Below are positions 20,218-54,040 of a stretch of 64,000 nucleotides of DNA, in pieces (the first letter of the stretch is position 1; every line of letters starts with the position of its first letter). This DNA is from a virus. A program made the position numbers and the translations under genes. The notes below the pieces were generated by a model. It ran no database searches, had not been told where the DNA came from, and saw nothing but the letters and a program-made list of their open reading frames with translations. The DNA lies in IMG/VR virus record IMGVR_UViG_3300025229_000001, one strand, 5' to 3'.

Positions 20218-20307
20218 CTCAATCCCTTTAACTGAGCCTTATGAGGTGCCACGGCAACCGGTAAGGTGCCGGCGTTCGGGTCGCGTCCCTAGCCGTGGCG
20301 TGAGGTG

Positions 20308-25075: not shown

Positions 25076-25170
25076 GATATTCCCTGTTAGTTAGTCCCTG
25101 TAATGGTGCCCGCGGAAGCACGACAGGGGGCGTGCGTGTCAGTTGCGCAACCTATCCGCGGGCTGACCGT

Positions 25171-36613: not shown

Positions 36614-36627
36614 CGGTCGCACCAAAT

Positions 36628-36656
36628 AAAAAAGCCAGCAGCCTTTCGGCGCTGGC
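36628..36656 (-). terminator. Intrinsic terminator at end of RNA array
   Basis: A6-GCCAGC...GCTGGC. Confidence 0.6.
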
Positions 36657-36846: not shown

Positions 36847-36896
36847 GCCCGAGCTTTGCACTCGGCTGCCGGCTTGCGTACCGGAGCTTTCCTCGT

Positions 36897-37020
36897 TGAG
36901 AGTGGCCGGCGCTGATCTCCGGCTTGCCACCACCATGCGCACGTCCCGTTAGGTCAGTGCCGGGAATCGAACCCGGTGGCATGTGATCAACATGCGCATC
37001 AGCCTGCGCATTCACTCTCA
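36897..37020 (-). ncRNA. C4-like phage antisense RNA, copy 1
   Basis: 8-bp closing stem TGAGAGTG/CACTCTCA; GCGC-AGGCTGAT-GCGC and GCCGG-AGATCAGCG-CCGGC hairpins; internal T-arm CCGGG-TTCGATT-CCCGG. Family name from memory of Rfam C4. Confidence 0.65.
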
Positions 37021-37092
37021 CGACTGGCGACTATCTGTCCTGGAGGATATTCGACGGGCTCCAGCGTCCGTCTAAATAATCGCCATGCGTGA
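37018..37092 (-). ncRNA. Long hairpin RNA module abutting the C4-like RNA
   Basis: TCACG/CGTGA plus TGGCGATTAT/ATAGTCGCCA stems. Confidence 0.45.
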
Positions 37093-51517: not shown

Positions 51518-51588
51518 GCTTTTTGCTTTGCTAAATCAAATCTTTTTGCACGTTGATCAAAATGATTGATCCAATCATCATTCGCACC

Positions 51589-52347
51589 ATGAAAACGGTG
51601 AAAGAGATCCGGTTAGAGAACGCGCGCGCGCTCGCACACGAGGGCCCGGCTGAGTTCGCGCGTCGAATAGACAGCAGCACTCAGCAGGTCAATCAGTTCA
51701 TGGGCCCGTCGCCAACTCGCAACATCGGTGACAAGCTGGCGCGCCGTATCGAGGCAGCGTTTGGCAAGCCAGAAGGGTGGCTTGATGTCGAGCACATAAC
51801 AGGCAGCACCGATGCATCAATCAGCGGAACAAGGTCGGCCGTACTCGAGAAATTGCTGCCAGAAGGAAGCGGTAACTTAGTCACATGGGAGACCCCGGAA
51901 GATCTCGAGCCCGACGACGACCGGGTGTGGATCGACCGTTATGACTATCGTTACTCAGCGGGGAATGGCGTGATTCAATGGGAAGTACGACAAAAAAAGG
52001 CGCTGCCGTTTGATATCGGTTTCTTCAAGGCCCTTGGTGTGCGCCCACAGGATTGCAGGTTGGCCCAGGTTCACGGTCGGAGCATGGAGCCGTATCTGTT
52101 CAATAAAGACATGATGATGATTTGCATGGCGAAGAACCGGGTGAAGGACGGTCTGATTTACGCCGTGACGTTTGAGGATGAACCGCTGGTGAAGCAGATC
52201 TTTAAGGAGCCGGAAGGCGCTCTGAGGCTGCATTCCTACAATCCAGAGTTTCCCGACAAGATCATCGCCGCGGACCAGCTGGAAGGGCTTCAGATCGCCG
52301 GAGAGGTTGTGTATCGATCCGGTTCAGGCTTGGCCGGCGGTAATTAA
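51589..52347 (+). CDS. cI: CI repressor (HTH plus S24 autopeptidase)
   Basis: AEFARRID...RNIGDKLARRIE; VHGRSMEP (Ser) and LVKQI (Lys). Confidence 0.93.
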   Translation: MKTVKEIRLENARALAHEGPAEFARRIDSSTQQVNQFMGPSPTRNIGDKLARRIEAAFGKPEGWLDVEHITGSTDASISGTRSAVLEKLLPEGSGNLVTWETPEDLEPDDDRVWIDRYDYRYSAGNGVIQWEVRQKKALPFDIGFFKALGVRPQDCRLAQVHGRSMEPYLFNKDMMMICMAKNRVKDGLIYAVTFEDEPLVKQIFKEPEGALRLHSYNPEFPDKIIAADQLEGLQIAGEVVYRSGSGLAGGN

Positions 52348-52420
52348 GACCGCTAAAAACCACAAATACGGGGTAGCCGATGGCGGTCGATCTGACTGAC
52401 CATCTTTGCAGCACTGAACG

Positions 52421-52447
52421 ACCCGGCCTCGGCCGGGTTTTTCATTT
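52421..52447 (+). terminator. cI terminator
   Basis: ACCCGGCC-TC-GGCCGGGT followed by T-tract. Confidence 0.75.
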
Positions 52448-52692: not shown

Positions 52693-52805
52693 AGCAAATC
52701 TTTATGATCTATTGAAGCTATGCAGGCGATAGAAATAATTGTTCGCTCCGAGCAAATCTTTTTGCGACATAGCGCTTGGCAAAGCAAATCAAATTGATCT
52801 ATGAT
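52693..52805 (+). promoter_or_regulatory. OL operators and pL promoter
   Basis: AGCAAATC-N5-GATCT at 52693 and 52783, degenerate copy at 52751; TTGGCA(52776)-N18-TATGAT(52800). Confidence 0.7.
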
Positions 52806-52851
52806 TCTCTCCATACCGCAACACAACGCAACGACGGAGAAGGGGATTGAA

Positions 52852-53058
52852 ATGAGCCCGAACAACCTTAATGCATTCCGCGCGATTGACGAAGTCTTCG
52901 ACGGAACTTTCATGTTGACGTTTGGCGGCCCGCTCGACGCACCGGAGATGATTCCGAACGGCTCGATGGTCGCGCATGAATGCCACACGATCCTCGCCGG
53001 TTCAGCACTTCGCTTGGGCGCGCACAACAAACCGTGCATATCGTTCCAGGTGCGCTAA
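52852..53058 (+). CDS. First pL gene, hypothetical (68 aa)
   Basis: Purine-rich RBS before MSPNNL; stop abuts the ribozyme. Confidence 0.6.
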   Translation: MSPNNLNAFRAIDEVFDGTFMLTFGGPLDAPEMIPNGSMVAHECHTILAGSALRLGAHNKPCISFQVR

Positions 53059-53113
53059 CAGGTCGAAACCGCTTCGGCGGTCTGAGCGTAAGGCGCTCAC
53101 TGACGAGACCGTG
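53059..53113 (+). ncRNA. Hammerhead ribozyme, type II
   Basis: GGTC-GAAA-CCGC(TTCG)GCGG-TC|TGAGCG(TAAGG)CGCTCA-CTGACGA-GACC: full core, G10.1-C11.1 pair, GUC cleavage after 53082. Confidence 0.92.
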
Positions 53114-53363
53114 AATTACCCGCAGTAGAAGCACCCGCCCCGGCAGAGCCGGATCGCGGAACGCACATTAACAATCGAAGTTTGCGGCCTCCCTCGGGAC
53201 TCGCCGCACGGTCTGATCTAGTCGACCGATACGCAGCACAGACCAACCGCGCTAGGCCGATGTATGGCTACCGGATAGAAGTCTGATTGAAGGCTGCGAG
53301 ACGATCAAAACCACGCGGCAGCTGGAGCCGGCTAGGCCGGGAGTTGTCAGCGTCGCGTGGATA

Positions 53364-53497
53364 GCAGTTCTCAGTGTTGGCGGTTGGTAACACGCATAGA
53401 CCATCGAGCCTTGCGAACCCCGCGTGTCTGGCGAATCCGGCGCGGGCGGCGGAAGAAGATGAACTAGCTAGGCCCAGCCGCCAACACTGAGAACTGC
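53364..53497 (+). repeat. 24-bp inverted repeat (RNase III-type stem)
   Basis: 53364-53387 pairs with 53474-53497 with one G-U. Confidence 0.85.
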
Positions 53498-53500
53498 AAG

Positions 53501-53623
53501 CGTTTTTAGTGGAAGGGTAGCGCAGTGGTGATGCGCGCTGAAGTGCACAGGTGGTGCGGGCGGCGATGTAGTCGTAACCGTTCCAAGCCGGAAATTCACC
53601 CCCGGCGCCTTCCCCTAAAGACG
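53501..53623 (+). ncRNA. C4-like RNA, copy 2 (divergent)
   Basis: Closing stem CGTTTTTAGTGGAAGG/CCTTCCCCTAAAGACG; GCGC-AGTGGTGAT-GCGC and GCCGG-AAATTCACCC-CCGGC hairpins. Confidence 0.6.
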
Positions 53624-53714
53624 TTTCGAGTCCCCTAGCCGCGGCCGATTCGCTGAGTCGGCGGCGGTTAGCGGGCTCTTGAGAGATTAGGACAACTACT
53701 CGCTGGAGACATTC

Positions 53715-54029
53715 ATGAGCGAAAAATCGGCCATCAGATGCGAGACGCCGCGTTGCATCAACGACATAGCGAAGTACGGCCCGCAATACCACATGGTCTA
53801 CGACCGCAAGGAAGGCCAGTGCTGTGAGCGTTGCGGTGGAAAGTTCGACGGGGCCGCATGGCGCCATGCCTGCAAGCACTGTGAAACCGAAGTGCAACCC
53901 GGCGAGCTTGTTGGCCTGTTCGTGCCGCACTCGTGCAAGGCGTGTCACGAGAAAGTTGTCGCCGACCAAGTCAAACGCGGCGCGGTCTGCGGTGGATGCA
54001 AATCGGCCTTCGCACTTTGTTGCTGCTAG
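53715..54029 (+). CDS. Cys-rich multi-zinc-finger protein
   Basis: 14 Cys in 104 aa, CxxC pairs, CCC terminus; GGAG RBS. Confidence 0.75.
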   Translation: MSEKSAIRCETPRCINDIAKYGPQYHMVYDRKEGQCCERCGGKFDGAAWRHACKHCETEVQPGELVGLFVPHSCKACHEKVVADQVKRGAVCGGCKSAFALCCC

Positions 54030-54040
54030 AGGAGCCAATC

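Follow-up and report, generated by a model that had tools for sequence, protein, structure and literature searches.

The phage DNA analyzed here, a window of 64,000 nucleotides that makes up most of the 68.5-kb IMG/VR record IMGVR_UViG_3300025229_000001 (rated complete by CheckV), carries a 601-nt RNA leader between its CI-like repressor gene and its early genes (53114-53714, plus strand; positions refer to the window). The best-conserved part of the leader, 53148-53313, lies upstream of every structure listed in an earlier note on this DNA and consists of a boxA-like element followed by three helices, P2 to P4; we found the same unit in some 30 further phages and prophages, most of them of Burkholderia type. 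The leader is structured and conserved, it covaries, it carries a homologue of boxA, it occupies the position of the lambda pL leader, and it contains neither supported open reading frames (ORFs) nor strong intrinsic terminators. We give about an even chance to the reading that it would work in the manner of ribosomal RNA operon (rrn) leaders and nut sites, as a device that loads Nus factors and counters Rho, joined to modules for processing and stability. More tentative, and possible rather than probable, is the wider proposal of a new class of N-independent antiterminator in Burkholderia-type temperate phages, in which an rrn-style boxA and a phage three-helix domain would act with host Nus factors while the 5' end would be set by interchangeable RNA 'scissors' (a hammerhead or a tRNA-shaped module cut by tRNA-processing enzymes).

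To characterize the distribution of the unit, we combined sequence searches with a covariance model. Sensitive BLAST against phage records matched only 53156-53291 of the leader, in the unannotated leaders of 'Shewanella' phage vB_Sb_QDWS and Burkholderia phage phi644-2; pattern scans of IMG/VR yielded about 24 true homologues, and BLAST added the Burkholderia phages Bups phi1, Magia, vB_E192a, vB_PL1 and BgManors32, where the RNA is unannotated or lies under 'hypothetical protein' calls. A genome-wide DNA pattern scan for the unit gave mostly chance matches, with one real locus (L046; L numbers are our handles for individual loci). The covariance model built from the homologues (R1; 170 positions, 35 pairs) detected a single copy in the window, 53148-53313, at 127.6 bits, and members in 7 of 150 sampled Burkholderiaceae genomes. 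Five of these Burkholderiaceae members, divergent ones at 33-65 bits, were found independently of the sequence search pattern. A second copy was found neither elsewhere in the window with the model nor in the 68.5-kb phage with BLAST, and the unit matches no Rfam family.

The helices are strongly supported by covariation. Across the 28-sequence model alignment (the window and 27 others), 95% of cells are paired and 23 of the 35 pairs are changed on both sides, a result equalled by none of 500 shuffles, whereas slid partners gave 2-10 such pairs. As the alignment was fitted to the covariance model these counts lean towards the model, yet they stand far above the controls, and 13 compensatory pairs had already come out of an independent run of MAFFT/RNAalifold. 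The unit comprises one or two small hairpins, boxA, helices P2 and P3, and the three-tier P4. The minimum free energy (MFE) fold of the window places a hairpin just 5' of boxA (53135-53159), in a rrn boxB-like position, and L109 has the 40-nt segment 53120-53159 at 97.5% identity, there too just before a boxA. Helix P2 (53184-53207) is 95% and 84% paired over its two alignment helices, with 6 of 9 pairs doubly changed; P3 (53209-53228), a hairpin with a GAUC-type loop, is 100% and 92% paired (4 of 6 pairs doubly changed); and P4 (53232-53298), 87-100% paired with double changes in 13 of 20 pairs, holds a near-invariant core, CGCUAGGCCGAUG..GGCUACCG, at 53250-53273. A compensatory C-G to U-A change is present in the core hairpin of L059, a member found by the covariance model and not by the sequence pattern. 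The minimal members L017 and L031 pass from boxA-P2-P4 directly to a ribosome-binding site (RBS) and gene, and carry no other modules.

Several further observations concern members of this family. Burkholderia-clade leaders (e.g., L016 at about 2375-2415) have an extra hairpin between P4 and P6, GUGaCCGAU..AUCGGCAC, whose loop GGCU could pair with an upstream AGCC to form an H-type pseudoknot; the window, L007 and L023 lack this hairpin. In Magia (NC_070954.1, 39305-39557) and Bups phi1 (EU307292.1, 2793-3050) the leader RNA lies beneath two 'hypothetical protein' annotations each, which are probably false gene calls. The record of L004 (OK094664.1, 'Shewanella phage vB_Sb_QDWS') and OP650936.1 ('Hujiaoplasma phage zrk29-1') are both 47,902 bp long, give matches that agree in query span, identity, E-value and bit score, and carry a Burkholderia-type leader at 83% identity, so that their stated hosts deserve a check.

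Next, we compared the boxA elements with those of host rRNA operons. The window element, GCACAUUAACAA (53163-53174), aligns column for column with the canonical boxA of the homologues, which takes the forms GCUCUUUAAAAA, GCUCUUUAACAA, GAUCUUUAACAA or GCUCUCUAACAA; the published gamma-proteobacterial consensus is GYTCTTTAANA (PMC5725501). We call GCACAUUAACAA a boxA because it is aligned with canonical copies, its position in the alignment being the sole basis for the call. A perfect boxA, equal to the host rrn leader or spacer boxA, is present in L004, L017, L023, L031 and L059. In the Burkholderia-type host genome G041, which carries such a prophage, the 5' end of 16S is preceded at about 190 nt by GCUCUUUAAAAA and its 3' end is closely followed by GUUCUUUAACAA, and this pairing occurs six times at a spacing of about 2.07 kb, which identifies the two as rrn leader and spacer boxA. 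Hairpins precede the rrn leader boxA of G041, and a hairpin likewise lies directly 5' of boxA in the window and its relatives. Because their sequences match the G041 rrn copies, several phage leaders carry the host's own rrn boxA in rrn order, hairpin and then boxA. The earlier note had proposed an RNA-only platform for processing or antitermination; the antitermination role gains support from this identity between the boxA of relatives and that of host rrn operons, while the 'RNA-only' part depends on the partner question taken up below.

The genomic setting is that of an early-left operon. A CI-like repressor gene with an S24 peptidase domain (51553-52347, plus strand), identified by Pfam and PHROG searches, lies 5' of the leader and is followed by a terminator (52420-52439) and then a small minus-strand gene. 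A sigma-70-like promoter in an AT-rich stretch (52776-52805, plus strand, 10 of 12 consensus positions) is the pL analogue that drives the leader. Downstream of it come an open frame for a 74-aa protein (52834-53058, plus strand; absent in L007, and without Pfam or PHROG match), a hammerhead-like motif, some 600 nt without a supported ORF, a GGAG Shine-Dalgarno sequence (53705-53708, plus strand) and, from the ATG at 53715 to 54029, the first early gene, which according to the sequence and the ORF list encodes a Cys-rich 104-aa protein and has no Pfam or PHROG family. The order of cI, promoter, leader and early genes is that of lambda pL, with everything transcribed away from cI. A same-strand CI-like repressor gene (phrog_4) precedes the leader in the window and in 6 of 10 further loci tested (L007, L017, L024, L029, L032 and L059), and L004 has an annotated 'repressor protein C' at the equivalent upstream position. 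Operator and promoter sequences are identical in L007 and the window, and since the L007 promoter runs straight into the boxA leader, the 74-codon ORF and hammerhead of the window look like an insertion between promoter and leader. On the plus strand from 53.7 to 64 kb we found no convincing intrinsic terminator, which makes Rho acting on long untranslated RNA the likely main hazard for the transcript.

As a whole, the leader folds far better than expected, with an MFE of -279.6 kcal/mol against -231.7 +/- 5.5 kcal/mol for dinucleotide shuffles (z = -8.67; 0 of 20 shuffles folded as well). No ORF of at least 60 aa is present on the plus strand over 53059-53714. The sole long ORF over the leader, a 256-aa minus-strand frame (53268-54038), is mostly antisense to the plus-strand ORF 53715-54029 and has no PHROG family match; a protein-coding reading was rejected given the lack of family matches and homologues that differ by indels not in multiples of three. 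The ORF list, the fold and the gene order thus bear out the view of the earlier note that an approximately 600-nt non-coding, modular, structured leader occupies the lambda-pL position. All four structures that it had listed exist (the hairpins 53311-53360 and 53628-53678, the 24-bp inverted repeat and the closed module 53498-53627), and the conserved coding frame that it had named as refuting its claim finds no support, as frame-breaking indels occur in the homologues. Rfam searches (gathering score and E<=10) of the window, the leader, both module copies, two named phages and ten loci with the canonical module found nothing relevant, the only matches being int-alpA elsewhere, one real tRNA and weak chance matches. 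A full-text search of the published literature by topic and by module sequence likewise found neither RNA family described.

Downstream of the conserved unit, the leader continues as a series of closed structures. P6 is a three-tier hairpin (53311-53360) of the MFE fold; an alignment of 12 homologues keeps it, and 10 of its 18 pairs are doubly changed. The closed domain P7 has a 24-bp stem (53364-53387 with 53474-53497) formed by an inverted repeat of 96% complementarity with 86 nt between its arms. In L007 a stem of 24 positions, with compensatory changes, encloses an unrelated interior. Members of the Burkholderia clade have as their equivalent long stem an extended closing stem, that of the next module type. 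We considered P7 as a miniature inverted-repeat transposable element (MITE) or a DNA palindrome and rejected both, because the repeat occurs only once in the phage genome and shows no flanking target duplication, and because the stem covaries in L007. An intrinsic terminator after the 24-bp stem was also rejected, since the U-run at 53503-53507 is paired within the closing stem of the next module. The P7 stem is a candidate substrate of RNase III. P9 (53628-53678), the MFE hairpin just before the RBS, is only partly common to L086. P6, P9 and the closed module between P7 and P9 appear in both the MFE and the centroid folds.

This closed module (53498-53627) is a variant copy of a tRNA-shaped kissing-loop module, identified by its fold and by homology to the canonical modules of L086 and L109. 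Its extended closing stem (53498-53516 with 53608-53626) encloses hairpin A (53520-53536) and hairpin B (53587-53606), whose loops pair with each other (GGUGA, 53527-53531, with UCACC, 53596-53600). The earlier note had described a C4-like RNA at 53501-53623; its presence and C4-like architecture hold, and membership of the C4 family does not. The Rfam C4 model (RF01695, gathering 45 bits) left 53480-53650, 36860-37060 and the phage as a whole without a match at E<=10, while it scored two loci of the P1-like phage RCS47 at 75 and 70 bits as a positive control and did not match RCS47's own kissing-loop module. The module is not a tRNA or tmRNA either: ARAGORN called 0 genes in the window, and the Rfam tRNA score of 12.6 bits (29 needed) covers only the acceptor and D-arm-like part.

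The canonical module has a closing stem of about 7-8 bp, a hairpin A of the form GCGC-AGGCUGAU-GCGC, a variable middle of about 26-50 nt and a hairpin B, GCCGG-AGAUCAGCR-CCGGC, stacked on the closing stem. L086 and L109 share their middle domain with the window copy and have canonical loops. The closing stem covaries strongly, with 57 different stems in 85 sequences and 94% of positions paired against 50% in shuffled controls, and the canonical loops, complementary to each other (GCUGAU : AUCAGC), hardly vary. When the pattern was relaxed at each of two A-loop positions, one variant turned up at the U and none at the C, and both loop variants found are compensated: L183 pairs GCCG with CGGC, and the window copy pairs the loops given above. 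An exact-pattern scan of IMG/VR located the module in at least 120 viral contigs, and BLAST in 162 phage records, including phages of Klebsiella, Escherichia, Salmonella, Pseudomonas and Burkholderia; one variant occurs in 107 complete E. coli genomes and is unannotated in 24 of 25 among the matches listed. It lies between pR'/qut and the late terminator in HK620, follows tRNA-Asn and tRNA-Thr in RCS47, and has a same-strand tRNA within 600 nt in 13 of 123 loci, at 14-20 nt in four of those. The module is therefore a very widespread and so far unannotated phage RNA with tRNA-like dimensions.

Other copies and flanks of the module show additional features. The late leader of the same phage (36660-37146, minus strand) contains a canonical copy (36897-37020) whose middle domain holds a perfect tRNA T-arm, CCGGGUUCGAUUCCCGG; this leader ends at an intrinsic terminator near 36625-36655, in the same layout as the HK620 pR'-tQ leader. 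A 5' single-stranded flank (C/G)AGUGCUCUUUCCG precedes the module in L064, L068, L070, L079, L096, L108, L152 and L153, and the same flank is found in HK620 (L178, about 2495-2515). The stretch UGCUCUUU within this flank equals the start of E. coli rrn boxA, a likeness that may be due to chance. In L086 (9300-10050), a close relative, the same module is preceded by a non-coding stretch of about 700 nt with two T-arm-like GGUUCGACUCC segments and other hairpins, a layout that points to reshuffling of modules between related phages.

Upstream of the leader, 53059-53113 (plus strand) reads as a hammerhead-like motif with stem II open (type II topology). It has the CUGANGA and GAAA boxes, the UH cleavage site and the three helices of a hammerhead, the core being read from the sequence as CUGACGA, GAAA and GUC, with a predicted cut after GUC, between 53082 and 53083. 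The motif stands directly before the pre-boxA hairpin in the window, L023 and L031, and its stems I and III covary. No Rfam hammerhead model is significant on 53059-53113 (best, Hammerhead_3 at 15.4 bits with 48.5 needed), so that the ribozyme call follows from the hand-read core and the covariation. Together with its 3' flank (53059-53125, plus strand) the motif also gives a weak RAGATH-16 match (21.2 bits, 65.6 needed), with a notable local resemblance, CGAGA..GUGAA..U.CCCG.AG, that could reflect chance or a distant relation of ribozyme-associated motifs. L109 is ordered as promoter, 46-codon ORF, canonical tRNA-shaped module, the 40-nt pre-boxA segment and boxA. The slot between upstream ORF and boxA is thus filled by the hammerhead in the window, L023 and L031 and by the tRNA-shaped module in L109, and this shared slot suggests that the module may be a signal for cutting the transcript. 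Together with the tRNA genes that the module abuts in other phages, it lends indirect support to the processing role proposed in the earlier note.

We searched for a phage-encoded partner of the N type. The earlier note had recognized no N-like antiterminator gene and we found none either, which is weak negative evidence. Clustering of the ORFs within 3.5 kb downstream at 31 loci revealed no gene family common to all members; the largest family covers 18 loci, the window not among them, and the first genes after the leader differ between clades. None of the first genes read has an arginine-rich N-terminus, and small early ORFs gave no Pfam or PHROG matches. Nor is there a conserved 15-nt boxB-like hairpin, as the apical loops of P2 vary freely (GCAA, ACAC, UUCG and others). 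Most Burkholderia-clade members (L004, 2928-3371; L016, 2683-3111; and 16 further loci) have as first gene a protein of about 140 aa that starts (T/H)ER(A/V)xEFW(T/S)DRQ, in most members with a zinc-ribbon-like C-terminal tail, CSxCGxxxGxG..G.S.C.DH; it is absent from the window.

Taken together, the region would be the untranslated leader of an immediate-early 'leftward-type' operon whose promoter lies 3' of the CI gene, built as a chain of autonomous RNA modules. The first of these (53135-53300: hairpin, boxA, P2-P4) would take the place of lambda nutL or HK022 putL. Its boxA may recruit host NusB/NusE(S10) as in rRNA operons, and the P2-P4 domain may stabilize or specify the complex on RNA polymerase. 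The expected outcome is transcription that resists Rho over some 600 untranslated nt and on into the operon, at least 10 kb of which lies in the window, without a phage N. P6, the 24-bp stem, the tRNA-shaped module and P9 could serve as punctuation for processing and stability, the long stem being a presumed target of host RNase III and the tRNA-shaped module one of tRNA-maturation enzymes, for instance RNase P, while the upstream hammerhead would free the 5' end of the leader from the inserted 74-codon ORF. The phage thus probably protects and trims its early transcript with RNA and host factors alone.

The closest known systems each share part of this design. The rRNA leader antitermination signal consists of boxB-boxA-boxC and engages NusB/NusE, NusA, NusG, SuhB and S4 (PMC4807359, PMC6614797, PMC10250234), and boxA/Nus complexes there solve the Rho problem of untranslated RNA (PMC4807359, PMC6614797). 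The phage leader resembles it in the order promoter, hairpin, boxA, in the letter-identity of several members' boxA with the host element, and in being a long untranslated structured RNA with long-stem-closed domains reminiscent of RNase III leader-trailer helices; unlike it, the leader belongs to a phage early operon before protein genes, has the phage-specific P2-P4, has no recognized boxC and in the window a degenerate boxA. With lambda nutL it shares the leader of the operon that starts 3' of cI and a boxA with structure 3' of it, but not the conserved-loop boxB-type hairpin of the boxA + boxB signal or an N-like gene, none being found, and there is one site per phage. The HK022 put RNA is a protein-independent antiterminator that binds RNA polymerase (PMC9378689). 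HK022 putL/putR, compared here by position only, are likewise folded RNAs just 3' of an early promoter in a phage without a recognizable N (PMC9378689), and by analogy a put-like action could explain the conserved P2-P4 domain; put, however, has no boxA or Nus need and consists of two stem-loops of about 70 nt in two copies per phage, whereas the window leader has a boxA and a single copy.

For the tRNA-shaped module, the nearest relatives are the P1/P7 C4 and P4 CI RNAs (RF01695), which are also closed tRNA-like modules inside an operon leader. The module differs from C4 in that its loops appear to pair mutually rather than with an mRNA target, in lacking a match to the C4 model, and in belonging to a far wider family that extends to late leaders and tRNA clusters. 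C4 itself is said to be matured by RNase P, as Hartmann et al. reportedly found in 1995. A further likeness is to tRNA genes as processing punctuation: the module combines a closing stem of about 7-8 bp with a 'D-like' hairpin (4 bp/8 nt) and a 'T-like' one of 5 bp that stacks on this stem, the two loops meeting at the 'elbow', and in other phages it often stands beside real tRNAs. Unlike tRNA it has no fixed-size anticodon arm, no T-loop consensus and no CCA, and ARAGORN does not call it.

Several points weigh against a Nus-loading antiterminator. The window boxA is degenerate, with two mismatches to GCUCUUUAACAA at conserved U positions, and taken alone it is no better than chance (2 matches, 2.8 expected); the commonest Burkholderia variant, GCUCUCUAACAA, has one mismatch, and Nus binding at such mismatched elements may be weak. 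No other boxA is present in the phage, which leaves no nutR/putR-like partner and a single copy per phage, and no boxC-like GU-rich element was recognized 3' of boxA. L109 combines the same pre-boxA hairpin and a boxA with a different downstream domain, so that P2-P4 could be carried along as cargo, outside the signal itself. Some of the family members were gathered by means of a sequence pattern within P4, and the invariance of the P4 core is to that extent ascertainment. Finally, Nus factors at boxA can also repress genes, as at suhB (PMC5725501).

Among the alternatives, the main rival is a small-RNA operon, unlikely in our judgement, in which the leader would be the precursor of stable trans-acting RNAs (P2-P4, the RNA enclosed by the 24-bp stem, the tRNA-shaped module) directed at the host or at defence systems, and boxA would serve, as in rRNA/tRNA operons, only the synthesis and folding of the untranslated array. 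The layout mirrors an rrn operon, with promoter, hairpin, boxA and then domains that long stems close; modules are exchanged among phages as well as between early and late leaders; the tRNA-shaped module is spread over the many contigs and records counted above, often far from boxA, and its almost invariant loops suggest a conserved partner. The minimal members L017 and L031, which dispense with the other modules, fit a cis-acting leader better, and no target or stable product is known. A conventional nut site whose N-like protein has gone unrecognized and binds P2, P3 or the P4 core is decidedly unlikely. It would account for boxA elements that in many members stray from the rrn consensus, a deviation that N makes up for in lambda, and for a P4 core that looks like a sequence-specific protein site, and N proteins are small, divergent and easily missed. 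The searches downstream argue the other way, with no gene family common to all members in 3.5 kb and clade-specific first genes without an arginine-rich N-terminus, as do the lack of a conserved boxB-type loop and the one site per phage. A hidden N-type protein would keep the role of the RNA and end the 'RNA-only' claim.

Immunity of the P1 C4 or P4 CI type, with the module 53498-53627 as a processed antisense RNA that blocks early genes through the same transcript, is highly improbable. It has in its favor the C4-like architecture of a long closing stem around hairpins, the position in an operon leader and a 13-nt imperfect complement of hairpin B at 53111-53123, although short imperfect inverted repeats of this kind are common in the region. 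The failed C4 search beside a control phage whose true C4 was found, loops that pair with each other in two independent compensatory cases, and the CI/S24 repressor that the phage already has all speak against it. There is only a faint chance of a riboswitch-like sensor, in which the P2-P4 junction would bind a ligand or factor and gate early-left expression. In its favor, this 5' leader has a junction of several helices in which unpaired nucleotides are highly conserved; against it, neither the window nor the minimal members have a terminator or an RBS-sequestering expression platform after P4, and the obligatory upstream boxA points to Nus factors. That the region is not an RNA element at all, and reflects a protein gene that was overlooked or repeats acting at the DNA level (MITE, binding palindrome or origin), is barely credible. 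The 256-aa minus-strand ORF overlaps the region and the inverted repeat, 134 bp overall, is of MITE-like size; the ORF, however, is without family match and largely antisense to the first early gene, the homologues show non-triplet indels and paired compensatory changes, and the repeat has neither further genome copies nor a flanking duplication.

If the antitermination reading is true, its reach would extend beyond this phage. To our knowledge, phage processive antitermination is known in three forms: N with nut, Q with qut, and the RNA-only put of HK022. A host rRNA boxA combined with a phage RNA domain would be a fourth antitermination design, and the leader would offer a direct handle on the redirection of Nus complexes. 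The family occurs in named, cultivable Burkholderia phages (phi644-2, Magia, Bups phi1, BgManors32), which makes it testable at once. The tRNA-shaped module is among the commonest unannotated phage RNAs that we met in this analysis, and the exchange of this module for a hammerhead suggests that RNA punctuation may follow a general logic across phage operons.

Elsewhere in the window, two int-alpA RNA motifs score above the Rfam gathering score, at 20236-20299 (minus strand, 44.7 bits) and 25096-25162 (minus strand, 42.0 bits).

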